Source: an uncultured Bacteriovoracaceae bacterium
Lineage (GTDB): Bacteria > Bdellovibrionota > UBA2428
Length of the DNA stretch: 64,000 bases
Assembly (NCBI GenBank): GCA_937952285.1
Contig: CALFZE010000130.1
Location: 18,282-82,281 of the forward strand
Reading direction: 5' to 3'
The position numbers and the translations under genes were made by a program. Shown piece by piece: positions 25,852 through 64,000 of the stretch (the stretch's first letter is position 1; each line of letters starts with the position of its first letter). Under the pieces are notes generated by a model. That model was not told where the DNA came from. It saw only the letters and a list, made by a program, of their open reading frames with translations, and made no database searches.

Positions 25852-27519
25852 TCAGGCCGCCCGGCGGGTCGCGGTCGAAGCGCCGCGCGGGGCCGGCAAC
25901 GCGTGAACGCTCGCTCCCTTGCCGGCAAACTTGGCCGTCTCGCCGCTTCCGGCGCCCTCGATGGCCAGCTTGAGCTCCAGGACGGCGTCCTTGAGCGAGC
26001 GGGCCTGCGCCGAAAGCTCCTCGGCCGCGCGGGCCGTTTCTTCGCTCGTGCCGGCGTTCTGCTGCGTGACGGTGTCGAGCTGCCCCATGGCCTTGTTGAT
26101 CTCGGCCACCCCCTGCGACTGCTCCTTGCTGGCGCTCGAGATGTCCTCGGCGAGCCCGGAGACGCGCGAGACGTTCTGTACGATCTCGTTCAGCACTTCC
26201 GCGCACTGGCGGGCGACGTCGACGCCCGAGCTGACCTTCTGCTTGCCTTGCTCGACGAGCATCTCGACCTTGACCTTCGTATCGTTCACGATGCCTTCGA
26301 CCTTCGAGATGCTGCCGGCGAGCATCTCCGAGATGTCCTTGGCGGCGTTGCCGCTCATCTCGGCCAGGTTGCCGACTTCCTCGGCGACGACGGCGAAGCC
26401 TTTGCCGTGCTCGCCGGCGCGGGCGGCCTCGACCGAGGCATTGAAGGAGAGGAGTTTCGTTTGGAAGACGATCTCGTTGATGACCTTCGTCTTGTTGCCG
26501 ATCTCCTGGATGACCTTCACGATCTCGGCCATCTGGCGGTTGCTCGTTTCGATCTGCTCCATGATGGCCGCGTTGCTCTGGCTGATTTCCTCCATCGAGG
26601 TCATCATCTGGTTCACGGCCTGCTGGCCCTGCTCGGCCTTCTCGTGCGACTCCTTGGAGCTCGAAGCCGTCGTCGTCGCGCTGTCGGCGGCCTTCGTGAT
26701 CATGGCGCCGATCTCCTCGAGCGACGCCGCGGTTTCTTCGAGCGAAGCAGCCTGTTCGGTGGTCGCCTGCGAGAGGGATTGGGACGACGAAGCGATTTGG
26801 GTCGAAGCGACCGTCACGCGGTCCGCGTTCGCGCCCAGGGCGTCCGAGATCGCGGAGATCGTCTTGGCCATGCCGCTCGAGAAAACCCAGCCCACGCCAA
26901 GTCCCAGCACGATGCCCGCGATGACCATGATCAAGACGAGTTTGTTCGTCATGGCCGCCGCCGATCGCGCTTCGGCGACGTCACGGTTCGAGTTTTCTTG
27001 CGTGAAGACGAGGAGTTTTTTGATGGAGGCTCGGTAGTTCGCGGCGGCATCGGGGCAGTCCTTCAAGAAGATGCCCATCATCTTCTCGCGGCCTTCCGGC
27101 GTGCCTTCTCGGTAGTGGGCGAGCGCGCGCTCACCGATCGAGCGGAAGGCTTTCCAGTTTTTCGAAACTTCGTCGTAGAGAGCCTTTTCGCCTTCGGAGA
27201 AGGGAACCCCGACGTAGATCTTTTCCGCCACGTCGTAGTCCTTCATACTTTCGGTGACAGATTCGATCGCGCGTTCCGCGGCTTCCTTCGAAAGGCCCGG
27301 CAACCCGAGCGTCCGCAGATGAATGCGGACGTTACGGTAGGCCAAGAACATTTCGTTCAGATGGACGACAGTCGGAAGGGCGATATCCGAGACCTTGGAA
27401 TAGGCGCGGGCGACCCGGTTCAACCCAAAGTAGGAAGTGATCCCGACGCTCGCCCCCATCGCGCACAAAATGCCGCAAAGCATGAGGAGCTTGGTTTTGA
27501 AGCTGAAACTTTTCATCAT
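25852..27519 (-). CDS. Methyl-accepting chemotaxis protein
   Basis: 555 aa: TM, periplasmic sensor region, TM, then the MCP signalling domain with the highly conserved [16 protein letters not shown] / [10 protein letters not shown] region. The start MMKSF is preceded by AAGGAAG. Confidence 0.9.
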
Positions 27520-27828
27520 AGAGTCTATCTTCCTTCTGTCCTTCGTTTCGACCCTTCCCCGCCGCGGCTTTAAGGCGCTCACATTCCAGGTTCCCGGATT
27601 CGATCGGGGGCCGAATACGGCGCACCTCGGAGATCGCGCTAATCCCCGGAGCTCGCAGGGTTTTTTGGGCGCGGACCGCCCCGGCATTAAGTTCTTCGAA
27701 AGGCTCGGGCGACGGCCAAGATGCCCCCCAAAAGCGGGACTTTTTGGGACCAATTCCAATTTCCTTCGCCCTAAGCCCCCAAGATTAGGGAAAGCGAGCT
27801 TTGGCAAACGCTTTGCATTCCAGCTCGT

Positions 27829-28512
27829 ATGAACGAACGTTATCGACTTCCCCCCATCGACCGAAAGGCCGCGGCCGTGCCGTCGCTCTTCTCCGAAGAG
27901 CAGTTCGACGCGCACTACTCGAAGCACCACCGGACCTACATCGACAAAACGAACAAGAGCGTCGAAGAGGGCGAGTTCTCCCATTCGAGCATGCTCGAGT
28001 ACCTCGCTTCGACCACCTCGGGCGCGACCTTTAATCAAGTCGCCCAGGCCTGGAACCACACCTTCTTCTGGTTTTCGCTGGGCCTCATGCGGTTCCCTAA
28101 GACGGCCAGCGACGCGCCCCCCGCGCCGATCAAGGCGAAGGCCGCGGAGCTTCGCGAGGAATGGATCGAGGCGGCCGCTTCGCACTTCGGCTCGGGATGG
28201 GTGTGGCTCGTCACGAACGACGAGGGCAAGCTTCGCGTCGTCACGACGCCGAACGGCGAGACGCCGCTTCCGAGCGGCGAGCGCCCGCTTCTCGTCATGG
28301 ACGTTTGGGAACACGCCTATTACCTCGATTACCAGTCGGAAAAGAAGGCCTACGCCGAAAAGTGCTGGGAGCACCTGAACTGGGAATGGGCCGAGGCGCT
28401 CAACCGCGACCCGCAACTCCTCGCGCACGTCGAGACGACGATGTGCCAGGATGCCGCCTGCCGGACTTCACCGTCACAACCAAGGAGAGAACATGAACAA
28501 GGAAACCGCTAA
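27829..28512 (+). CDS. Fe/Mn superoxide dismutase with a ~30-aa C-terminal extension
   Basis: Carries [18 protein letters not shown] and the other SOD metal ligands. Its stop lies 20 nt inside the dps ORF. Confidence 0.85.
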
Positions 28513-53368: not shown

Positions 53369-56300
53369 TTATTCATTTCCTTCGTCCTCCCCTCGGAGGA
53401 CGCTTCTTTCGGACGCCTTCCGGGCGAAGGCGTAGAACGCGGTGGGCGTGACGACGAAATCCAGGATCGTCGAGCTCAGCAGACCGCCGACGATGACGAC
53501 CGCCACGGGGTGAAGGATCTCGCTCCCGGGTTGTCCCTTCGCGAAGACGAGCGGCATCAAGCCGAGCGCGGCCGTGAGGGCCGTCATCAAGACGGGAATG
53601 AGCCGCTCGAGCGATCCGCGGATGACCATCTCCTTCGTGAACTTCTCGCCCTCGTGCTTCATGAGGTGCAAGTAGTGCGAGATCATCATGATCCCGTTGC
53701 GGCTCGCGATCCCGCAGAGGGTCACGAGGCCGATGAGGCTCGCCACCGAGAAGACGCGATCGATCGCGAAGAGCGAATAGAGCCCGCCCATAAAGGCGAG
53801 CGGGACCGTGAGCATGATCTGCGCCGTGATCATCGCCGACTTGAAATGCGCGAAGAGCACGAAGGCGATGCCGAGTACGCTCACCAAGCTGAACAATACG
53901 ATCCGGCGCGTCGCCGAGCGCTGGGCCTCGAACTGGCCGCCGTACGCGACGTAGTAGCCTTCGGGGAGCTCGACCTTCTCCTGCACCCGCCGTTGGATGC
54001 TCTCCACGACGCTGCCGAGGTCGCGGCCGGCCACGTTGCCGTAGACCACGATGCGTCGCATGCCGTTCTCGCGGTTGACCTGGTTCGGTCCGCTCGACTC
54101 GTAGACGTCCGCGATCATGTCGAGGGTCACGCGCCGGCCGTCGGGCATCGTCTTGAAGGGCGTATTCTTCATGAGCTCCAGGTTGCCGCGCGAGACGTCG
54201 TCAAAACGGTAGAAGACGTCGTAGACTTTCTGGTCCTCGATGACCTGCGAAACGATGCGGCCGCCGAAGGCGAGCTCGAGCATCTTGGAGACCTCGCCCA
54301 CGTTGAGACCGTAGCGCAGCGTCTCCTCGCGCAGGAGATGGATCTTGACCTGGGGAATGAGGGCCTGCTGCTCGACGTTCAGATCGACGAGCCCCTCGAT
54401 ATCCTGGATCGCCCCGCGAAGCTCGGCCGCCTTGACCCGTAGCATGGCGAGGTCGCTCCCGAAGATCTTGATGGCGAGCTGGGCGTTCACGCCCGACAGG
54501 AGGTGATCGAGCCGGTGCGAGATCGGCTGGCCGATGTTGACCGCGACGTTCGGGATGGCTTCCAGGTTCTCGCGCAGCTCGTCGAGGATGGCCTCGCGTG
54601 AGCGCGTCGCGTCCTTGCGGAAGGAGACGTCGATCTCGGAGACGTTAACGCCTTCGGCGTGCTCGTCGAGCTCGGCCCGGCCCGTCCGGCGCGAAACGAA
54701 CTTCACTTCGGGGGTCTTCAGGATCAGGTTTTCGGCCTCGGAGCCAATCGCGTTCGATCGCTCGAGCGAGGTTCCCGGCACCGAAACGACCGAGACCATG
54801 GCCGTGCCTTCGTTGAACTTCGGCAGGAAGTCCTTGCCCATGAAGGGGAGCAACGCGATCGAGCCGAGGAACATCACAAAGGCGACCGACAGCACTTTTT
54901 TCGGGTGATCGAGCGCCCACTCCAGGATGCGGCGATCGAAGGCCTTGAGCTTCGTGACGATCTTCGTCTCGTGGTGTTCCTTGAACTCCGCGTTCCGGAA
55001 GAAGAAAGAACAGAGCACGGGCGTCACGGTGAGCGACACGAGAAGCGACGCGCCCAGCGCCGTCACGTAAGCGATGGCGAGCGGGGTGAAGAGACGACCC
55101 TCGAGTCCATCCAGCGCGAAGAGCGGGATGAAGACGAGCGCGATGATGACCGTCGCGAGGACGATCGAGTTGCGAACCTCGCTCGACGCCTCGAAGACGA
55201 TCTTGAGGATCGACCGCTTGGCGCCCGCGGCCCGGTTCTCCTTGAGACGCCGAAAGACGTTCTCGACGTCGACGATGGCGTCGTCCACGACCTCGCCCAC
55301 GGCGATGGCGAGACCCCCGAGGGTCATCGTATTCACCGAAAGCCCGAAGAGCTCGAAGACGATCGCCGTCACGAGGAAGGACAGCGGAATGGCCGTGAGC
55401 GTGATGGCCGTCATGCGGAGGTTCGCCAGGAAGAGCAGCAGGATGACCGTCACGAGGATGCTGCCGTACTTGAGCTTGCCCTTGACGCCCGCGATCGAGA
55501 CCTCGATGAAGTCCGACTGCTTGAAGATCTCCGGGTTCACTTCGACGCCCTTCGGAAGCGTCCGTTGGATCTCGGCGATGGCCGCGTCGACCCGCTCCGT
55601 GAGCGCGACGGTATCCGTGCCGGGTTGTTTTTGGATCGACATCACGACGGCGGGCTTGGCCATGAAGGAACCGTCCCCGCGCTTGGTGCGCGGGCCGATC
55701 TTCACTTCGGCGACGTCCTTGATGAGGATTGAGCGGCCCAGGTGAACGCCGATGACCGTGTTCTCGATATCCTCGACGCTCTTCACGGCGCCGATGTTGC
55801 GGACAAGAAACTCCTTCTGATCCTTATCCAAGAAGCCGCCCGTCGTGTTCGTACCGACGTGACCCAGGTACTCGTCGAGCGCCTGCAGGTCGAGCTGGTA
55901 GTTCTTGAGCTTGGTCGCCGAGAAAAGGATCTGGTACTGCTTGAGCCCGCCCCCGATCGAGATGACCTGGGCGATGCCCGGGATCGTGAGGAGCCGGGGC
56001 CGGATCGTCCACTCCGCCAGGGTCCGCAGGTCGAGGGGCGTGACTTCGGGGTTGCTCGAGGACAACGCGATCGTCTGGATCTGCCCCATGATCGAGCTGA
56101 TCGGCCCCATCACGGGCTGGATCCCCTCGGGAAAATGCTCCGCCGCGACCGCGAGTTTCTCCGCGACGAGCTGCCGGTTGCGGAAGATGTCCGTTCCCCA
56201 GTCGAACTCGACGTAGACCACGGACAGGCCGACGCCCGACGACGAGCGGATCCGCTGCACCCCGGGGAGGCCGTTCAGGTTCGACTCGAGCGGCAAGGTC

Positions 56301-56494
56301 ACGAGCGTCTCGACCTCCTCGGGCGCCATGCCACCCGCCTCGGTCATGATCGTCACGGTCGGCCGGTTCAAATCCGGAAAGACGTCGATGGGAAGTTTGA
56401 AGAGCGTGGCCCCGCCCCATACGACGATCAGCGCCACGAGGGCGAGAACGACGAGCCGGTGCCGAAGGGCCGCCTTGATGATGAGATCTAACAT
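53369..56494 (-). CDS. Heavy-metal-efflux RND transporter permease (CzcA/CusA family)
   Basis: 1041 aa with 12 TM helices and two large periplasmic loops. N-terminus MLDLIIKAALRHRLVVLALVALIVVWG...DVFPDL. Confidence 0.9.
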   Translation of the reverse strand: MLDLIIKAALRHRLVVLALVALIVVWGGATLFKLPIDVFPDLNRPTVTIMTEAGGMAPEEVETLVTLPLESNLNGLPGVQRIRSSSGVGLSVVYVEFDWGTDIFRNRQLVAEKLAVAAEHFPEGIQPVMGPISSIMGQIQTIALSSSNPEVTPLDLRTLAEWTIRPRLLTIPGIAQVISIGGGLKQYQILFSATKLKNYQLDLQALDEYLGHVGTNTTGGFLDKDQKEFLVRNIGAVKSVEDIENTVIGVHLGRSILIKDVAEVKIGPRTKRGDGSFMAKPAVVMSIQKQPGTDTVALTERVDAAIAEIQRTLPKGVEVNPEIFKQSDFIEVSIAGVKGKLKYGSILVTVILLLFLANLRMTAITLTAIPLSFLVTAIVFELFGLSVNTMTLGGLAIAVGEVVDDAIVDVENVFRRLKENRAAGAKRSILKIVFEASSEVRNSIVLATVIIALVFIPLFALDGLEGRLFTPLAIAYVTALGASLLVSLTVTPVLCSFFFRNAEFKEHHETKIVTKLKAFDRRILEWALDHPKKVLSVAFVMFLGSIALLPFMGKDFLPKFNEGTAMVSVVSVPGTSLERSNAIGSEAENLILKTPEVKFVSRRTGRAELDEHAEGVNVSEIDVSFRKDATRSREAILDELRENLEAIPNVAVNIGQPISHRLDHLLSGVNAQLAIKIFGSDLAMLRVKAAELRGAIQDIEGLVDLNVEQQALIPQVKIHLLREETLRYGLNVGEVSKMLELAFGGRIVSQVIEDQKVYDVFYRFDDVSRGNLELMKNTPFKTMPDGRRVTLDMIADVYESSGPNQVNRENGMRRIVVYGNVAGRDLGSVVESIQRRVQEKVELPEGYYVAYGGQFEAQRSATRRIVLFSLVSVLGIAFVLFAHFKSAMITAQIMLTVPLAFMGGLYSLFAIDRVFSVASLIGLVTLCGIASRNGIMMISHYLHLMKHEGEKFTKEMVIRGSLERLIPVLMTALTAALGLMPLVFAKGQPGSEILHPVAVVIVGGLLSSTILDFVVTPTAFYAFARKASERSVLRGEDEGNE

Positions 56495-56521
56495 TCTATT
56501 CCTCGCCGATTTCGGAGGCCG

Positions 56522-57292
56522 TTAGAGAAGGACGCGAAGACCGAGCTCGATCGACCACGCCCGCAGGGGCGCGCTCGCCGACAATCCGCGGTGGATCGCC
56601 CCGGACAACGTGATTCCGTCAAGCCAAGCGTCGGGGGCCCGCGACGAAGCCGCCGTCTCGAAAAGGCTCAGGCCCCCCCGCAGCGCGAGGTTCGGGATCC
56701 AGTAGCCTTGGTCCATGCCGTCGAGCGCGCCGCTCTGGTAGAAGAACTGCGCCCCCAACGACGGCGCCAGGAAGGCCGTGACCGCCGGGGCCGCGCGAAG
56801 CGGGTGGCTCACGCGCACGCCCGCCGCCAGGGGCAACGCGTGCACGCTCACGAAGTCCTTGAGCACGGCGCTCTGCGCCGAAACCACGTCGACGAGCGCC
56901 TCGCGCATCCCGTAACCCACCGCGACGAACGGCTCGACGCCGAATCCCCGCGCGTCGAACTTCTTCGACGCCGAGATCTGCACCGAGGGAAGCGCGCCCA
57001 TCTGCGAAGCGTAGTCGACCGAGAAGAAAGCGTTCGACAGCTCGAGCGCCGACCACGAGAGGTACGAGGCGCCGAACTCCAGATGGAAGGGACTCGCCTC
57101 GCGCGCGAGGGAAGCGTCCATCTCCCGCGCGGATCGCGAAAAGAGGCTCCGGAAGTTGGATTCGTCGACCGCGATGCCGGGCGTCGCCGGCGCTGCGGCG
57201 GGCGCCGCGGCCTTGGGCTTTTCGCGGGCGCCGACGGGAAGCGCGAAGAACGCGCCCAGACCCAAGGCGATGACTCGTTGACGAGCAAACAT
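56522..57292 (-). CDS. Small outer-membrane beta-barrel-like protein (256 aa)
   Basis: The start MFARQRVIALGLGAFFALPVGA was verified at 57292-57290. It shows alternating amphipathic strands and ends LGLRVLL. The track ORF begins 66 nt upstream. Confidence 0.5.
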   Translation of the reverse strand: MFARQRVIALGLGAFFALPVGAREKPKAAAPAAAPATPGIAVDESNFRSLFSRSAREMDASLAREASPFHLEFGASYLSWSALELSNAFFSVDYASQMGALPSVQISASKKFDARGFGVEPFVAVGYGMREALVDVVSAQSAVLKDFVSVHALPLAAGVRVSHPLRAAPAVTAFLAPSLGAQFFYQSGALDGMDQGYWIPNLALRGGLSLFETAASSRAPDAWLDGITLSGAIHRGLSASAPLRAWSIELGLRVLL

Positions 57293-57294
57293 GA

Positions 57295-57813
57295 TTAACG
57301 ACCTCCTTCGCGGGAGAGCCGGAGCGTCCCCGACGCGCCGACCGAGGCGGCGCTCCAAACGCCGACGAGATCCGCCCCCTGCACCGAAACGTTGAGCACG
57401 AGATCCTGGAACTGCGAGTGAACGACGACGAGGTTCAGGCGTCCCGGGGCCGCGAAGTACTCCGCCGAGCCGACCGGGGCGTCGGAATACTCGCCGACCT
57501 CTTCGCTGCCGTAAAGAAAGCGCAGGTAGCCGATCAGCTTGGGCACCAGCACGGGATCGACCCCCGCCCCGCTTTGCCCTTCCGGGACGTCGCGCACCTC
57601 GAGATTCAGGACGACGGGCTGCTCGTAATCGGACGCGCCGAGCAAGTTCCCGGCGTACCGGCCGCCGACCTGGCCGAGCTCCGAGCGTTTGACCTCGGCC
57701 AAGTTCATGTCGCGCTGGCGGGCGATCTCGCGATCGCTCGGCCGGCGCTGGCTACAAGCCGACAGCGCCGCGAGCGAGAGCGCGAGCGCGAAAAGCCGGA
57801 TGTTCTTTCTCAT
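57295..57813 (-). CDS. Lipoprotein (172 aa)
   Basis: Lipobox LAALSAC. Its stop is 2 nt before the next ATG. It shares a VGVWSAASVGASG motif with neighbouring paralogs. Confidence 0.55.
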   Translation of the reverse strand: MRKNIRLFALALSLAALSACSQRRPSDREIARQRDMNLAEVKRSELGQVGGRYAGNLLGASDYEQPVVLNLEVRDVPEGQSGAGVDPVLVPKLIGYLRFLYGSEEVGEYSDAPVGSAEYFAAPGRLNLVVVHSQFQDLVLNVSVQGADLVGVWSAASVGASGTLRLSREGGR

Positions 57814-58631
57814 TGTACGCTCTCCAATTCGATCGTGCCGACGCGGCCGAGGCCGTCCGCGAAGACGTCCGCGACGAAATCGCCGTCGGGGGAAAGCACG
57901 CCCTTCAGCGTGATCCCGTGCTGGGCCGTTTTAAGGGTGAGGTAACGGTTGTAGAAGTTGAACTTCGCCTCGGCGATCGGCGTCTCGACGAACTCCCCCG
58001 AGCCGAAATCGCCCAGGTAAAAGCGCAGGTTGCCGGAGATGCGGAGCTCGACCGTTCCTCCTTCCGCGGGAGTTTGCGTCGTGACGAGCGACAGGCTGAG
58101 TCGCTCGGGAAGGTTGGATTCGGGATGGGTGTTCACGAGCGTCCCGCGGTAGTGGCCGGTGACCGTCTTCACGAGAACCGAGCCGCGCTCGATCGCGGGC
58201 ACCTGCGACTTCTGGGCGGCGAAGCGACCGACGCGACCCGCGCTCGACGAAAACCATTCCCCCGTGATGGCGCCGTTGCGAAGCGTCCCGATGAAACTCA
58301 CGTCGTTGCCGTCGGCGCGGAGGCTCAGCTGCCGGGTGAGCAGGTTCATCGGCACGTCCGGGTACTCGTAGGTCAGGAACTCGTTCGAGCTCCAGTCGCC
58401 GAAGATCATCCGCACGCTCGCCGAAATCTTGAGCGTGCCGCCGATGTTCACGGTGCGAATCGTGAGCGTGGCGAACTGATGGTACTTCGTCGGCTCCGCG
58501 CCCCGGGGTTCGTGGTTGAGGACCGTCCGGTAGGTCCCTTGGATGGACTCGGTTTGCGCCCCCGCGACCGGGGTCGCGAGAAAGGCGGCCCCGAGCGCGA
58601 GCGAAGGAAGGTATCGGGTGAAGAAGTTCAT
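57810..58631 (-). CDS. Secreted protein with two copies of a ~130-aa module
   Basis: Signal peptide; modules IFGDWSSNEFLTYEYPDV ... GEWFSSSAGRVGRFAA; ATGA overlaps at both ends. Confidence 0.6.
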   Translation of the reverse strand: MNFFTRYLPSLALGAAFLATPVAGAQTESIQGTYRTVLNHEPRGAEPTKYHQFATLTIRTVNIGGTLKISASVRMIFGDWSSNEFLTYEYPDVPMNLLTRQLSLRADGNDVSFIGTLRNGAITGEWFSSSAGRVGRFAAQKSQVPAIERGSVLVKTVTGHYRGTLVNTHPESNLPERLSLSLVTTQTPAEGGTVELRISGNLRFYLGDFGSGEFVETPIAEAKFNFYNRYLTLKTAQHGITLKGVLSPDGDFVADVFADGLGRVGTIELESVQ

Positions 58632-60207
58632 GGTTTCTCCTCGTTCAAGACTTTGAACAGACGGGGCGCCTCGAAGACGGGCATGATCGTGCCGTAGCCG
58701 TTGGAGGTCATGAGGGCGCTCAAGTGGGCGCCCTCATGGCGTTTGGCGCTAAAAAGGCGGTCGTCGCCGTAGAGCAGCGCGAGGCGCCCCACGTAAAAAT
58801 CATAGCTGCCGGCGACGACGTTCTCCTTGGCGGCGCCGCGGAACCACATCGTGCCGCCAAGCTGCAGCGGATAGTACGGGTTCTCGGTGTTGGGCGGCGT
58901 CGTGCCCTGGAAGACTTTCAGATCGAGCGAGAAGGTGTCGTGTCCGTAGCGGGCCGTGAGCGGGACGACGCGACGGGCGTCGGGCCGGGGCTTCACGCCG
59001 CCGTCTTTGGCCGCCTCGAAGGACCCCACCCGGCCGAAGAGCAGCGAGTACCACTCCCCGCGGATCGTGCCGTCCTTCAGCGTCGTGACCTTGAGGAAGG
59101 CGTCGACGTCGTCGTCCAGCCGACTCAAGACGAAGTCCGAACGGAGGATCGGATTCGGGTAATCCCGCGGCTCGAAGCGGTAGGCGATCGCCTCGTGGCT
59201 GCGCTCCGACCCGAAGAAGAGCGTCGCCACGGCCGAGATCCGGAGCGTCGACTCTCGTCCGTCCGTGGCCTGGTAGGTGGCCACGTCGATGCGAATGGGC
59301 TGGTAGGCGTCGAGGTACTCGTGGTGGACGTAGCCCCGGTAGGCGCCCGCGATCGCGGAAGGCGACGACGAAGCGGCCGCTTGCTCGCGCACGAAGCTCG
59401 CCTTCGCTCGCGGCGGCGCGAACTCGCGCGAGCGGGACTCGGAAGAGCGCCGCTCGAAGCGACAGCCCGCCCCGCAGTTCAGCGCGTTCCCCTCGACTTT
59501 ACAGTCAAGGTTCGAGAGGCGGCCCACGAGCTCAAGCTGGCCTCGGTAGAAGTCGTAGGTCCCCTGGGTGAAGGTGTCGCGGTTGCACACCCGCCCGCTC
59601 CCTTGGTCGAAGCAGAGGGAATCGTTGAGCACGCCGACTTGCGCCCGCACGTCGTAGGCCGCGAAGGGCGACCCGATGCGCGAGGAGTCCCCGGTGGAGC
59701 GGAAAGTGTGGATCTGGAGCGCCCGATTCTCGCCTTCGCACTTGCCGACGTATTCGCCGTTCAACGGCTCGATGAGCGGCCGGGCCGGATTCGCCACGCC
59801 GTCGAGGTTGAGCGAAAGCTCGCCGATCTGCCCAGCTTGGCCACGAGCTCTCCCGCCGCGAAACGCGTCGTGACGATCGTCGCGTCTTCGTCGGCCGAGT
59901 CGAAGGTGAGAACGCCGGTCACGAGTCCGTAGTGAACCTTGTCGAAATGGTACGAGACGTACTCCCCACTCCGGAAGTCGCCGAAGTGGAGAGTCAAGAC
60001 GGCCTTGAGGTCGAGCTCGTTGCCGGCGGTCCGCGACATCACGAAGTCGAGCTTCGCGAGCTGCTCCCTTCCGAGTCGCTCGTGCTTGAGGGTCCCGACG
60101 TAGCGGCCAAAGACGCCGCTTTGCGCCCACGCCCGAACGGAAGCAAACGAAGCCGCGCAAACGAGAACGAGGACGGACAGACGGCGAACGAGTTTTCGAC
60201 CTCCCAC
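58628..60207 (-). pseudogene. Paralogous secreted protein (~527 aa) interrupted by a frameshift near 59800-59830
   Basis: The N-terminal 149 aa (GTG at 60207, RBS AAAGGGGG, signal peptide, HFGDFRSGEYVSYHFDKV) are in the frame of track ORF 59761-60657. The rest (IRGEWYSLLFGRVGSFEAA...) is in the frame of 58628-60433, which has no start codon near the switch. Confidence 0.5.
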
Positions 60208-60218
60208 GATCGCCCCCT

Positions 60219-60593
60219 TTACTCGCTTCGCGAGGCGGCCTTCTCGACCGTATCGCCTTCCTTGAAGTCGACGCCTTCGGGGAAGCTCGCGACCGAATAG
60301 TGGGCGTCGTAAACCTTGCGAATCGTTCCCGTCCCGATCGTGCGGGGACGGCAGCGGAACTCGGCGGCGCCCGAGGCGCGGCCGCCGGCGACCTTCTCCG
60401 CGACGCATTCGTGCCGGACGACGCGAACGGCATCGCCCACGGCGACCTGTTTGTTGCCGAGGCAGACGTGCGCCTCGCCGCCCTCCGTCTTCATGACGAC
60501 GGACCCGCGGTGTTCGCCTTCGTGAGGTTTCGCGGTCGCGCAAGCACTCAAGACCAGTCCAATAAGCCCAAGCATGGGCATTGAGATTTTCAT
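60219..60593 (-). CDS. Small His/Cys-containing lipoprotein (124 aa)
   Basis: Lipobox LVLSAC with an internal start MKISMPMLG. It is the first gene of the co-directional cluster. Confidence 0.5.
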   Translation of the reverse strand: MKISMPMLGLIGLVLSACATAKPHEGEHRGSVVMKTEGGEAHVCLGNKQVAVGDAVRVVRHECVAEKVAGGRASGAAEFRCRPRTIGTGTIRKVYDAHYSVASFPEGVDFKEGDTVEKAASRSE

Positions 60594-61109
60594 GTTTTCC
60601 TTTTCGTGGACCCACGCGCCCAAACGCGTGGGTCGAGGGTGGGCACGGGCCGTTCACGGCCCTTTCGTTAAGTGGAAGCGGCGGAAGAAAAGGCGACTAA
60701 GCGCGCGGGGGACGGAAAAGCGAAGCGAGGTGCGGCGAGCCGGGGACCGACCAATCGGTCGCGGCTTTGAGGGCCGACGTAGCGGGTTCGAAGCTTCTCA
60801 AAGCGATTTGCCGGATCGGCAGCACGCAAGAAGTACAAGCATGAACGTGGACATGGGCATGATCGGCTTTGCGGTCCTCGTCGTGCGGGTCCGCGCCATG
60901 GTCCTCGTCGAGGCAACCCGCCGCGTCCTGGCAGGCCAGCTCAGCCGTCTGAAGATGCGTGATCGATTCGAAGCGGGCCTGGAGACCGGAGAGCGCGAAG
61001 GCTCCCAGCATCAAGAGCGAAAAGAAGAACTTCTTGGGGCCCACGAGTCTTTGATACCAAATCCCTCGCATCTTGAGAAGCCCCTTTAAATGACTCCGCC
61101 TCCGTCCGC

Positions 61110-61808
61110 TTAGACTTCGTGCAGGAAGAGCTCCGACGCCAGACGCACGTGCGTCGAAGGCGCCGGCGCCTTCGCGGCGCGCCCCACGCCGAACACCATG
61201 ACGACGCGCGAAGCCCGCCCCAGCCCGAGCAAGCGCTTCACGCGCTTTTCGTCGAAGCCTTCCATCGGGCAGCTCGCGTAACCCTGATCGACGACCGAGA
61301 GCATGAAGTTTTCGCAGGCCAGGGCCGTCGTCTTCGTCACGACCTCGACGAGTTCCGCGCGCGTGGAGGGCCCGCGCGGCACGGGCCGCCAAAGCCCCAC
61401 GACGCCAAAGAAAATCCGTTTGAGCAAACCCGCCAAGCCGAAGGGATCTTGCCAATAGGCCGCCGGCACGACTTTGCGGTAGTAGTTCGTGAGGTAGGCC
61501 GGTACGGGGCCTTCGCTCGCGAGCTTTTCGAGCAGGAGAGCGCGGTTGCGGCGCCACGTGTCCGTCCGCGCAACGGCCACGACGAGTTCCGCGGCCGTGC
61601 GCGCGGCCGCCTGCGAGAAGCAAGCTTCGACCAGCTTAGCCTTCGAGGACGGCGTCCGGACCCAGTAGAATTCCCAAGGCTGCATGTTCGAGGAATTCGG
61701 CGCGAGCAGGGCGTCCTCGAGCGCCCGACGGATCACGGCCTCCGGAACGGCTTCCGACGCAAACTGACGAACGCTCCGGCGAGCGGCGAGGACGGCCTTG
61801 AATTCCAT
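61110..61808 (-). CDS. Nitroreductase-family protein
   Basis: N-terminal RRSVRQF FMN-binding motif and 232-aa length. Confidence 0.75.
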   Translation of the reverse strand: MEFKAVLAARRSVRQFASEAVPEAVIRRALEDALLAPNSSNMQPWEFYWVRTPSSKAKLVEACFSQAAARTAAELVVAVARTDTWRRNRALLLEKLASEGPVPAYLTNYYRKVVPAAYWQDPFGLAGLLKRIFFGVVGLWRPVPRGPSTRAELVEVVTKTTALACENFMLSVVDQGYASCPMEGFDEKRVKRLLGLGRASRVVMVFGVGRAAKAPAPSTHVRLASELFLHEV

Positions 61809-62409
61809 GCGACCTTTTTACGCCCCTTATCGCTTCGACGCACCCACGAAACGAAAGACGCACCCAGCCACATCTGTAACTTGCCCTTACATAAAAATCG
61901 GAGGCTCCAGGCATTCGCCCGCTCTCCGCACGAGAGGCATCAATGCGACGCCTCACTATCGTGAGCACGGCGAGTGGGAGGTCTACGACTATCTGCACGC
62001 AACTGATTGGCGCAAAGTAGAACGCCGCCTTCATCGAGCCTTTTCCAGCAGCAAGAAGAAATCAAATTCAGCAAATGAACTCTATTCGGCTTCTCTTCTG
62101 GAAGCGCAAAACGCACTTCACAGCGCGCCCCTCGATCTACAAGTTGGCCGGGAGAAACTCGAACGCTTCAGACAAGACAGAGCACTGAAGTCCTACTTGA
62201 ACGAGTCGCTTCTTACGACTTGCCTATACGGACACCTGGACCCACAGGGAACATGGGCACTGAAGCTATTTCCCCCTACGGCGGGCGGACGCCAGTTCAC
62301 ACTAAGCATTGGCTCACACGAAGTCGTCTTCTCGGCAAACACTTCGGCGAATCATCATTGCCTCGTAATGGATGAACTCGCGCGCGATATTCCCGAATTA
62401 AAGAGGTGA
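61798..62409 (+). CDS. T5orf172 (GIY-YIG-like) domain protein; start uncertain
   Basis: PYIKIGGSRHSPALRTRGINA...EWEVYDYLHATDWRKVERRLHRAF fits the T5orf172/Mug113 pattern (KIGxT...R...E...H..F). The gene lies in a roughly 48% GC segment. Confidence 0.45.
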   Translation: MNSMRPFYAPYRFDAPTKRKTHPATSVTCPYIKIGGSRHSPALRTRGINATPHYREHGEWEVYDYLHATDWRKVERRLHRAFSSSKKKSNSANELYSASLLEAQNALHSAPLDLQVGREKLERFRQDRALKSYLNESLLTTCLYGHLDPQGTWALKLFPPTAGGRQFTLSIGSHEVVFSANTSANHHCLVMDELARDIPELKR

Positions 62410-62694
62410 CTGGAGAAGCACCGAGGCGGCTGCCAAAGGGCTGCCTATAGAACAGCCGGGGATCGAGCCCTCTCGGTCCATTTCAACGGCGATCTTTCCG
62501 ACGCTCAGCGCTTTCTTAAGGTTCGCGGAGTACGACGGGCGCTAGTCGCCTACTGGGCAGATTAACTCGCCAACTTACGAGAACGAGCGGAACAAAGCCC
62601 GTACGCGAGGTATTACGACCACAATGCTGTCATGGACCTCGTGGACTATTAGCGCGCCTATTCTCCATAGGCCCGCAACCCTAGCCTTGCGCTA

Positions 62695-63114
62695 TTAGTC
62701 GCACCGATACGCTGAGGTGAAAAACTGGGGCGACCCCTGAGGAGCTGGCTGTTGGTGAATAAAGTACGTCGGAAAGAATTTCGATCCGGGGATTAGAGTC
62801 CAAAAGAAGACGTCTCCAGAATCTAGCTTCTCGTAAAATGACCTATCACCAACTTTCGTCAGTTTTGACTGGCGACCAGAATTCTTAAAAAGCGCATGAT
62901 CCTTGGTGACGGCAATTGAGACTACTTCGGCGTCCTTTGGAGTGCGCACCTCACCCTCCATCCGCCCAGTTTTTAGTTCGGTCGCGGCTCCCATACGATG
63001 AGACAAATGCGACATTGTTTCCAGCTTGCAGGAGTAGATCCTATCCTGAGCTTGGGCCGAATGCGTGACTGCAAAAATCCAAACACTCAATCCAACCAAC
63101 AAGGTTCTCTTCAT
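62695..63114 (-). CDS. Small secreted hypothetical protein in the low-GC island
   Basis: Internal start MKRTLLVGLSVWIFAVTHSAQAQ (signal peptide). Confidence 0.4.
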   Translation of the reverse strand: MKRTLLVGLSVWIFAVTHSAQAQDRIYSCKLETMSHLSHRMGAATELKTGRMEGEVRTPKDAEVVSIAVTKDHALFKNSGRQSKLTKVGDRSFYEKLDSGDVFFWTLIPGSKFFPTYFIHQQPAPQGSPQFFTSAYRCD

Positions 63115-63221
63115 TCCCTCAAATGTAACACGAGCCGAGAACCCGTGGGTAGACATGCGGGAGGCGCGCCAAACAATCCCGAACGAGCATCTCACGCCGA
63201 CGGCGAGCTGCGAGCTCGGAA

Positions 63222-63983
63222 CTAAATGCCTCGACCCTGTACCCTTATCCGAAAGTCCTCAGGCGTTGTCCTAATCCAAACTGAAGCAAAAAGGTGTCCC
63301 ACATCCGGGCCTTGGCCTGGGTGTGGCGGAAAAGGTTGAATCTGCCCATTCAAGACTTTTCGGATACCGATATGCCTCTGCCCGCTGAGATGAAGAGCAA
63401 TCTCAGCGTCCTCAACCCGTATCGGACGCCCATACCCAGCCCACCGAACAAATGGAATTGATAAATAGACCCCCTGATACGTCGACAGAGACCCTGAGCT
63501 CTTAGCAAAGATCTCGCTACTCTCTTTGGCCACAATTTTTGCATAAAACTCAGCTCTCTTGCCGGGCTCAAGAATACGAAACTGATAGAGCTCGACTAGA
63601 GTGAACTCCACCGTCTCCCCATTTCCATTCGGGACCAGCCTAGCAAGCACGGTGTCACGGACAGGGAGCGCAATGGTGTACGCGCTAAAAGGGCAGTTTT
63701 CTTCAGTCCATTCACCCGAGAATCGCACTTTTACAACCCCACTTAGAGTCTTTATGCGATCCTGCTCAATGGCCAACCGGCTAGTGAGTTCCTGTATTCG
63801 AATGGCCTGACTAAGATTCTCATTCTTCAAGAGCAAAGAATCATTCTGAATACTGAGCACCTGATTCTCAGAGGCTGCAACCTTCAAACTCTGTTCATTG
63901 GACTCAATTCGACCAAGATGCGCAGCCCAAACCGCCAAAGCCGCGACGAAAAAAGAAACAGACTTTAATGCCTTTCGGGCCAA
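63222..63983 (-). CDS. Membrane-anchored hypothetical protein with a coiled-coil segment (low-GC island)
   Basis: Signal/anchor MARKALKSVSFFVAALAVWAA followed by heptad-rich LSIQNDSLLLKNENLSQAIRIQELTSRLAIEQDRIKTL. Confidence 0.45.
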   Translation of the reverse strand: MARKALKSVSFFVAALAVWAAHLGRIESNEQSLKVAASENQVLSIQNDSLLLKNENLSQAIRIQELTSRLAIEQDRIKTLSGVVKVRFSGEWTEENCPFSAYTIALPVRDTVLARLVPNGNGETVEFTLVELYQFRILEPGKRAEFYAKIVAKESSEIFAKSSGSLSTYQGVYLSIPFVRWAGYGRPIRVEDAEIALHLSGQRHIGIRKVLNGQIQPFPPHPGQGPDVGHLFASVWIRTTPEDFRIRVQGRGI

Positions 63984-64000
63984 TGGCTGACTTTCAAAAA

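Follow-up and report, generated by a model that had tools for sequence, protein, structure and literature searches.

A low-GC tract at the edge of a high-GC metagenomic window as the probable end of a decayed metal and thiol homeostasis island

The window analysed here, a stretch of DNA of 64,000 nucleotides from an uncultured bacterium, changes composition abruptly in its last 2.2 kb, immediately after a nitroreductase gene, and the low-GC segment encodes a reading frame related to the T5orf172 (GIY-YIG-like) family. The locus therefore raises the question of whether this segment is the visible edge of a defence or mobile system that continues outside the window, as the earlier note had suggested, or part of something else. 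Our results indicate that positions 61810-64000 are very probably the proximal 2.2 kb of a decayed, acquired metal/thiol island of about 17.6 kb lying between tRNA-Ala(GGC) and the nitroreductase gene (Table 1).

Composition and extent of the low-GC tract

GC content is 65.6% over window positions 1-61809 and 52.2% over 61810-64000, the latter giving z = -7.5 against 597 core windows of equal length (mean 0.655, sd 0.018, minimum 0.602). The drop reported earlier is thus present, but its size, put at about 68% to about 48%, was exaggerated. The best GC change point falls at 61800, just after the start codon of the nitroreductase gene, which itself has a GC content of 66.5% and a GC3 of 0.83. 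Third codon positions show the same step, with GC3 of 0.83-0.88 in the flanking genes versus 0.47-0.70 in 19 island genes. The host is an uncultured bacterium of about 66% GC from a bioreactor-sludge metagenome.

The earlier expectation that the island extends past the window was borne out on a near-identical public contig (GCA_002343545.1), which carries a further ~15.5 kb and places the end of the tract at the extrapolated window position ~79457. A tRNA-Ala(GGC) gene lies exactly at this far border, and past it GC climbs back to about 67% (66-73% beyond public contig position ~2700), so that one contig holds the low-GC tract with DNA of about 66% GC on both sides. At the window-side border, tblastn homology to T5orf172-family proteins begins at 61870-61891, and the junction zone ahead of it contains no att-like repeat. 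The junction sequence is common to the window, an NCBI metagenome-assembled genome (MAG), an ENA metagenome contig and a JGI contig, and three public contigs carry the exact nitroreductase protein. An Rfam search of positions 55000-64000 returned no match, and a promoter and terminator scan yielded candidates at or under shuffle expectation.

Table 1. Features of the window-side end of the island and of its continuation. Coordinates outside the window (above 64000) are approximate, being extrapolated through a public contig with two N gaps inside the island (111 and 94 nt).
Feature	Position	Strand	Remarks
Nitroreductase, 232 aa	61110..61808	(-)	PF00881, E 1e-30; final core-genome gene ahead of the island
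Core/island junction zone, 61 nt	61809..61869	.	Nitroreductase start codon to first base with T5orf172-family homology
Island, in-window 2.2 kb	61810..64000	.	Whole of ~17.6 kb is window ~61810-79457, via public contig
T5orf172 (GIY-YIG-like) pseudogene, ~285-aa family	61870..62655	(+)	tblastn E ~1e-70, single frame
Inverted repeat, left arm CCGGGGATCGA	62456..62466	.	Within T5orf172 pseudogene
Small secreted protein, 139 aa from ATG 63114	62695..63114	(-)	ORF reading
Inverted repeat, right arm TCGATCCGGGG	62781..62791	.	Within 3' end of secreted-protein gene
Membrane-anchored protein, rare family	63222..64000, on to ~64067	(-)	281 aa as called on public contig
IS3b	64336-65646		12-bp TG..CA ends
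YjbR	65959-66336
ICMT methyltransferase	66330-66914
IS3a	66966-68192		Perfect 16-bp terminal inverted repeats
CDF exporter	68410-69222		PF01545
DsbA	69233-70000
DsbB	69883-70422
LspA	70344-70913
DsbD	70907-72652
ArsR	72656-73066		ArsR/SmtB, NF033788
rve_3 transposase fragment	74128-74394
CDF exporter	74560-75192		PF01545
Cytochrome c-FTR1 (PbrT-like) permease	75395-77492
ArsR	77450-77860		ArsR/SmtB, NF033788
XRE	78471-79118
tRNA-Ala(GGC)	~79458-79534	(-)	Public contig 2741-2817

Cargo and mobility genes of the island

The domain content of the island predicts a cargo for heavy-metal and thiol-disulfide homeostasis. Two ArsR/SmtB metalloregulators (NF033788; scores of 77 and 82 bits, cut-off 55) co-occur with the metal transporter genes, two for CDF exporters and one for a cytochrome c-FTR1 fusion, and the metal modules are present as paralogous duplicates. 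By contrast, the suggestion that a defence system is partly visible at the window edge did not hold, as the remaining 15 kb contain no defence genes. A PADLOC search of the other island proteins yielded nothing more specific than generic HTH/wHTH hits on the models Csa3, HTH_VI and capH, and among the in-window proteins nothing was significant.

Both IS3 elements are well supported by the NCBIfam transpos_IS3 model (233 and 182 bits). The earlier note had also proposed a search for an integrase and att sites, and neither was found: the called island genes and ORFs include no integrase, a six-frame Pfam scan of five unannotated island gaps recovered the rve_3 fragment only and no integrase remnant, and a search at the window-side junction for a repeat of the tRNA-Ala 3' end gave an alignment score equal to the shuffle mean, with no match of at least 19/30 nearby. 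The two N gaps of the public contig could conceal small features. The same note had weighed its island against a downstream return to core composition with neither mobility nor defence genes; core composition does return, after 17.6 kb, and defence genes are absent, but mobility genes are present in the form of IS3 elements. Its central claim, that the segment is a horizontally acquired island, is upheld by sharp shifts in GC and GC3 at either end, the tRNA-Ala border, the two IS3 elements and transposase fragment, and a module 77% identical in nucleotide sequence to a uniformly 47%-GC Bacteriovoracaceae genome.

The transposase genes and the missing integrase could also be read another way, with the island being a mosaic assembled by IS3 transposition and recombination and its position beside a tRNA gene incidental; the duplicated, paralogous metal modules would fit such a history. 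We consider this unlikely. The two IS elements are unlike each other and so make up no composite transposon, no IS end falls on either border of the island, and the far border immediately adjoins a tRNA gene, the kind of site that integrases classically target. In addition, a Bradyrhizobium homolog of the T5orf172 gene likewise lies on a low-GC tract adjoining a tRNA. A tRNA-side island location is found for two of the three contexts seen for the intact relatives of this gene.

The island shares with tRNA-associated genomic islands an atypical GC and GC3, abrupt borders, a border tRNA, IS elements, resistance cargo and pseudogenes, and differs from them in that a tyrosine integrase and flanking direct repeats are undetectable. 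The most fitting description is that of an old island remnant, now immobilised. The insertion is argued from composition and content only, because the collections yielded no close relative in which the site is empty: a metagenome scan for the flanking NDH-2 gave 80 loci of at most 57% amino acid identity, none of them adjoining nitroreductase, HgmA or tRNA-Ala, and relatives of the nitroreductase reached at most 64% amino acid identity, with three long-contig contexts, none syntenic.

The T5orf172 reading frame and its intact relatives

The earlier note had described a T5orf172-type gene in the segment. The family assignment stands, with homologs matching at E values down to 1e-50, but the gene is not intact. 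By tblastn, a single reading frame over 61870-62658 aligns to homolog residues ~9-275, and it does so across two in-frame stops, a TGA at 62407-62409 that occupies an invariant tryptophan column (W193) and a TAA at 62563-62565. Gone, too, are the start codon and the initial conserved strand (GFVYIL); R, H and A stand where the family has the invariant residues G4, Y7 and L9, the first β-strand motif is not matched, and a TTG that overlaps the start of the nitroreductase gene is the sole start codon in frame. Because independent assemblies agree on both stops, sequencing errors at positions 62407 and 62563 are unlikely. A reading of TGA as tryptophan under an alternative genetic code was considered and rejected, the other stop being TAA and the neighbouring genes of the 66%-GC host reading normally.

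Could the frame nevertheless encode a working GIY-YIG-type nuclease at the edge of an anti-phage or self-mobile system beyond the window? Its 203-aa ORF (61798..62409) passes the Pfam T5orf172 threshold barely (PF10544, 20.2 bits where 20.0 are required), covering profile positions 15-90 of 101 only, and scores 19.9 bits with MUG113, under the cut-off of 22.3. The conceptual translation retains 38 of 48 family-invariant residues (G4, Y7, L9 and W193 are among those lost), including R29, N34, E60 and E80, among them the conserved arginine and the catalytic-type glutamate (E80) of the GIY-YIG core; the catalytic role is taken from the literature (PMC10448857). Full-length homologs match the PADLOC models PDC-S57 (E 5e-13) and PD-Lambda-1 (E 1e-3), in both cases over the T5orf172 domain only. 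Against these points, two in-frame stops, the lack of a usable start codon and a replaced first strand leave little room for a functional product, and the window ORF itself reaches a PADLOC E value of 0.003 at best, again over the T5orf172 domain only. The remaining 15 kb of the island are as free of defence genes as the two homolog contexts that we examined, in which no Pfam-annotated defence or partner genes lie beside the gene and which share nothing with each other. A working nuclease is thus highly improbable, and the frame, as read from its sequence, is a broken pseudogene.

The intact relatives define an uncharacterised family of ~285 aa that combines a T5orf172/GIY-YIG domain with a domain of ~190 residues of unknown fold. 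Searches with the T5orf172 ORF retrieved 39 proteins, whose lengths range over 226-306 aa and in 36 cases lie within 281-306 aa, and PF10544 is present in 37. In intact members, PF10544 scores 35-49 bits (E 1e-13) over profile positions 1-100 and covers the N-terminal ~95 residues, the remaining ~190 residues forming a conserved domain of unknown type. Foldseek superposes the model of one homolog, P0002, on the GIY-YIG domain of Slx1 (probability 0.97-0.98, E 0.05-0.15). The N-terminal PF10544 domain is shared with the T5orf172 homing endonucleases of ICP1 and T5-like phages (PMC10448857), but those enzymes carry Zn-finger/CapR DNA-binding repeats where the intact homologs have the conserved ~190-aa C-terminal domain. 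The T5orf172 domain is likewise common to PDC-S57, PD-Lambda-1 and the intact homologs, whereas the window copy is a pseudogene. No member of the family was found in a phage search, and a plasmid collection gave one distant match, in a Klebsiella pneumoniae record. As the window copy shows, a borderline T5orf172 match at an island edge can be a dead relic and not a defence gene.

Least credible of all is an artefactual origin of the GC step, in which metagenome assembly would have joined contigs of two organisms into a chimera: every source is a metagenome assembly and the NCBI MAG and ENA contig may share reads, but a single contig has ~66% GC DNA on both sides of the tract, the junction is identical in the window, NCBI MAG and ENA contigs and recurs at 98% identity in the JGI contig from a separate project (the differences being its N run), and only 61 nt separate it from a truncated gene, in the manner of a biological deletion scar.

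Origin of the island and its likeness to known metal clusters

A search of a genome-contig collection gave a sole match to the island, a Bacteriovoracaceae MAG (CAYZFQ010000003.1), in which DsbD-LspA-DsbB-DsbA-CDF is collinear over 3.4 kb and 77% identical at the nucleotide level, with DsbD at 84% amino acid identity. That contig is uniformly 47% GC, so that the module there matches its surroundings, and the module adjoins an RND pump, whereas here it sits within foreign DNA inserted into a genome of 66% GC. No near-identical DNA was present in PLSDB. The tract records a probable cross-lineage transfer of a metal/thiol-homeostasis island with a donor composition like that of Bacteriovoracaceae, and such a transfer fits metal selection in a bioreactor.

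The donor was probably a lineage of about 47-52% GC, the closest known relative of one module being in the Bacteriovoracaceae MAG. Entry was most likely by integration beside the tRNA gene, although the window-side junction carries no direct-repeat copy of the tRNA 3' end. Integrase and att repeats would since have been lost, and two IS3-family elements that differ from each other would have been inserted, together with a transposase fragment. A deletion presumably trimmed the window-side end and removed the start of the T5orf172-family nuclease gene, which would then have gained its two nonsense mutations. From domain content, the ArsR/SmtB repressors would respond to metal by releasing expression of the CDF exporters and the PbrT-like cytochrome c-FTR1 permease, and the same derepression would cover the DsbD/DsbB/DsbA relay, the extra lipoprotein signal peptidase and the ICMT-type methyltransferase. 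The T5orf172 relic would have no function, leaving two intact in-window genes, whose predicted products are an exported protein and a membrane-anchored one.

The pbr determinant of Cupriavidus metallidurans pMOL30 comprises PbrT, PbrR, PbrA, PbrB/C and PbrD, and czc-type clusters include CzcD and CzcN. The island resembles pbr in its cytochrome c-FTR1 fusion (PbrT), extra signal peptidase II (PbrC) and metal-sensing repressors, and czc in its CDF exporters (CzcD) and ICMT-family protein (CzcN). It differs in having ArsR/SmtB regulators where pbr has the MerR-type PbrR and in adding the DsbD/DsbB/DsbA relay to the pbr and czc content, and neither a P-type ATPase (PbrA) nor an RND CzcCBA was found in it. 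It is an ordinary genomic island and matters little beyond annotation.

The earlier note had further pointed to an imperfect inverted repeat and to two secreted or anchored proteins. The repeat is present, its arms pairing at 9 of 11 positions, but its right arm, placed at 62785, spans 62781-62791, and its significance fell away. A repeat search of 2.5 kb found 32 comparable or better inverted pairs and placed this pair outside the 25 longest, and by our own estimate ~300 pairs of 11-mers with at most two mismatches are expected in 2.2 kb; a functional hairpin or terminal inverted repeat formed by the 62456 and 62781 arms was therefore ruled out as being at chance level.

Both proteins proved as described. 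The 62695..63114 product carries an N-terminal signal peptide (MKRTLLVGLSVWIFAVTHSAQA followed by QD, with the boundary at THSAQA-QD); the longest ORF of its gene starts at GTG 63195 and encodes 166 aa, the gene has a GC3 of 0.54, and the protein has no match in Pfam, NCBIfam, PHROG or PADLOC. The 63222..(64067) product consists of N-terminal transmembrane or hydrophobic helices, a coiled coil and a C-terminal β-sandwich. Its AF2 model (pLDDT 84.7) gives a weak PLAT/LH2-like match (E 4e-4, TMq 0.24), and the family is rare, with 12 matches in 1.84 billion representatives. As minor leads, the locus thus offers this rare anchored β-sandwich family and the family joining T5orf172 to an unknown C-terminal domain. 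It is a long shot that the intact ~285-aa family could represent a novel nuclease borne by islands and working alone, in defence or in competition between islands, and that the transmembrane, coiled-coil and PLAT-like protein could be a new envelope factor.

Composition and extent of the low-GC tract

GC content is steady at 65.6% over positions 1–61809 and falls to 52.2% at 61810–64000, a value with z = −7.5 against 597 overlapping 2.19-kb baseline windows (mean 0.655, s.d. 0.018, minimum 0.602), and the largest 600-nt GC contrast lies at position 61800. The drop described in the earlier note is thus real and abrupt, but smaller than stated (66% to 52%, rather than 68% to 48%). Only two other dips in the window fall below 58%, at ~27–28 kb and 41.3–41.7 kb; the former (27000–28000, 57–58% GC) is no island but part of a gene for a methyl-accepting chemotaxis protein, which has Ala/Ser/Gln-rich repeats.

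The nitroreductase protein is identical on three public contigs: the 83-kb DDRA01000170.1 (NCBI MAG GCA_002343545.1), a 7.3-kb contig from the bioreactor-sludge metagenome ERZ936775 and a 1.4-kb JGI contig. Over shared stretches the window and the public contigs match at 99.9–100%, with the JGI contig at 98% owing to its run of Ns. The window, which is free of N gaps and reaches ~36 kb further upstream than DDRA01000170.1, thus stems from another and better assembly of that organism. Identity between its core genes and their nearest relatives is only 57–64%, and the lineage is therefore poorly sampled.

Using a homolog search and a second look-up that reached 10 kb further on the NCBI contig, we followed the island beyond the window on L005, a locus on DDRA01000170.1 (window position = 82275 − L005 position). 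GC content there is 61–73% (mean ~67%) up to ~2700, 43–59% (~51% overall) from 2700 to ~20440, and back at 65% over the nitroreductase gene. This puts the total length of the low-GC tract at ~17.6 kb, with only 2.2 kb of it inside the window. GC3 leads to the same conclusion, being 0.85, 0.88 and 0.83 in the flanking HgmA, NDH-2 and nitroreductase genes versus 0.47–0.70 in 19 island genes. These steps support the proposal that the DNA is foreign, and the low-GC tract on L005, down to ~2700, confirms that it runs past the window end.

A T5orf172-type pseudogene and its intact relatives

The T5orf172-type ORF scores 20.2 bits against PF10544, the Pfam T5orf172 profile (threshold 20.0), covering profile positions 15–90 of 101. 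Extended past its stop codon and used as a query, it retrieved 39 homologous proteins of 226–306 aa (281–306 aa in 36 of 39; E down to 1e-50) that cover 68–95% of the extended query; 37 carry PF10544, and some from Bradyrhizobium are annotated 'GIY-YIG nuclease family protein'. Alignment and tblastn traced a single continuous frame from 61870 to 62658 (E ~1e-70) that crosses two stop codons. The TGA falls in an invariant Trp column of the 36-sequence family alignment, which argues for a TGG to TGA change, and past the TAA the frame reads LANLRERAEQSPYARYYDHNAVMDLVDY, the C-terminus of the T5orf172-domain family. At the other end, nothing recognisable is left of the family's first 8–15 residues, among them the invariant G4, Y7 and L9 from the GIY-like strand, and the sole in-frame start codon is a TTG overlapping the nitroreductase start. 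Both stops are common to the window, the DDRA01000170.1 locus (L001/L005) and the ENA metagenome contig (L002), and 38 of 48 family-invariant residues are kept. Judged on its sequence, the gene is a pseudogene of moderate age: its assignment to the family holds, but it is a relic with two stops and a lost start, not a working gene.

Intact homologs match PF10544 end to end (E 1e-13). The AlphaFold model of one of them, P0002, is confident (pLDDT 91.4), with an N-terminal domain that overlays the GIY-YIG domain of Slx1 (Foldseek probability 0.97–0.98, with a weak E of 0.05–0.15). The C-terminal ~190 residues of P0002 gave no convincing structural match, and a PDB-sequence profile search returned insignificant matches only (for example Hpy188I, E 0.8). 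The PADLOC models PDC-S57 and PD-Lambda-1 align to the T5orf172 domain only. Another intact homolog, P0024 (Bradyrhizobium sp. WSM1253; JH600073.1, L091 6410–15000), has tRNA-Val(CAC) at a distance of 1.5 kb and sits in a tract of 54–61% GC (56–58% around the gene) versus 63–69% for the genome, and this locus is another tRNA-side island with the family. Numerous small hypothetical ORFs surround P0024. The homolog in another organism sits between argG and housekeeping genes. No partner genes are conserved across the contexts examined, so nothing points to a multi-gene system.

Borders, cargo and likely origin

The far GC step coincides exactly with a tRNA-Ala(GGC) gene called by ARAGORN, and the edge of a tRNA gene is a classic site of an integrated island. 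Checks for an integrase and att sites, suggested by the earlier note, found neither: the called genes and ORFs of the island include no integrase, a six-frame Pfam scan of five of its unannotated gaps for integrase remnants gave an rve_3 fragment only, and the window-side junction has no direct repeat of the tRNA 3' end (local alignment score equal to the shuffle mean; no match of at least 19/30). The border on that side falls within the 61-nt stretch that separates the nitroreductase start codon (61808) from the first base homologous to T5orf172-family proteins (61870), and because the T5orf172-type gene lacks its own 5' end we infer that the border is the scar of a deletion and no att site. 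There are no tRNA genes within the window and no Rfam matches in 55000–64000.

A 16-nt copy (15/16) of the tRNA-Ala(GGC) 5' end, taking in 3 upstream bases, lies outside the window at L005 2888–2903 (~window 79372–79387), 71 nt downstream of the tRNA and just inside the island. Its score was reached by only 1 of 500 shuffles, and an earlier integration or duplication may have left it behind.

Features of the island and its flanks (window positions unless L005 is stated; cargo in order outward from the window, all outside it)
Feature	Position	Strand	Remark
Nitroreductase gene	61110..61808	-	PF00881, E 1e-30
T5orf172-type ORF	61798..62409
In-frame TGA	62407-62409
In-frame TAA	62563-62565
Secreted protein, 139 aa	62695..63114	-	Clear signal peptide
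Anchored protein, 281 aa	63222..~64067	-	Past window end at 64000; N-terminal hydrophobic helices
IS3b	1st outward		12-bp TG..CA terminal repeats
YjbR	2nd outward
ICMT-type methyltransferase	3rd outward		NF040696, 203 bits
IS3a	4th outward		Perfect 16-bp terminal inverted repeats
CDF transporter, first	5th outward
DsbA-like thioredoxin-fold protein, DsbB, LspA, DsbD	next, in that sequence
ArsR/SmtB regulator, first	next
Small protein, 100 aa	next
rve_3 transposase fragment	next
CDF transporter, second	next
Cytochrome c-FTR1 fusion	next
ArsR/SmtB regulator, second	next
Small protein, 84 aa	next		Paralogous to 100-aa protein
Double-HTH XRE regulator	last gene before tRNA
tRNA-Ala(GGC)	L005 2741-2817

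On its domains only, the island is most economically read as serving metal (Zn/Cd/Pb-type) and thiol-disulfide homeostasis, which would suit a bioreactor-sludge organism; the cytochrome c–FTR1 fusion we take to be PbrT-like, as in the pbr operon. Two paralogous modules (L005 3795–7715 and 8460–13865, outside the window) each comprise a small protein (84 or 100 aa), then an ArsR/SmtB regulator, with a CDF transporter at the end. The small proteins have the motif W-G-x-P-G-F-C-T-E-W-D-R-D-Y in common and no family match. A PADLOC defence check of the rest of the island gave generic HTH similarities only. What lies beyond the window is not what the earlier note suspected: the tract is an ordinary genomic island beside a tRNA gene, immobilised, with predicted metal-resistance cargo, IS3 elements and a relic T5orf172-type gene.

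The DsbD–LspA–DsbB–DsbA–CDF block is collinear with, and 77% identical in nucleotides to, L004 9999–13453, a locus on contig CAYZFQ010000003.1 from the MAG of an uncultured Bacteriovoracaceae bacterium, with 84% amino acid identity for DsbD; in that MAG an RND pump adjoins the block. The contig is 47% GC throughout, indicating a donor of such composition, and the match hints at the donor lineage. The plasmid collection held no near-identical DNA.

Remaining genes and the inverted repeat

The two secreted or anchored proteins of the earlier note are supported by the signal peptide of one and the hydrophobic helices of the other. No family matched the 139-aa protein. Relatives of the anchored protein numbered only 12 (E 1e-17 to 6e-4, the query itself aside) when 1.84 billion cluster representatives were searched exhaustively, making this a very rare family, and its neighbour gene is not conserved in the sole relative with a readable contig. 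The confident AlphaFold (AF2) model (pLDDT 84.7) has transmembrane helices, a long helix or coiled coil and then a β-sandwich with weak similarity to PLAT/LH2 domains. It is improbable, in our estimate, that this protein, or the intact family joining T5orf172 to an unknown domain, has an undescribed function.

The imperfect inverted repeat noted earlier is present (62456–62466 and 62781–62791, 9/11 matching), but 32 pairs of like or better quality occur in the same region, and its arms lie in the pseudogene and the secreted-protein gene, respectively, in differing reading frames. Next to it lies another inverted pair of 11 nt, this one perfect: TCTTTCCGACG / CGTCGGAAAGA (62493–62503 and 62767–62777). 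Both pairs combined match at 20/22 with a 23-nt indel (rough chance estimate, p ~0.2), and we treat the repeat as chance.
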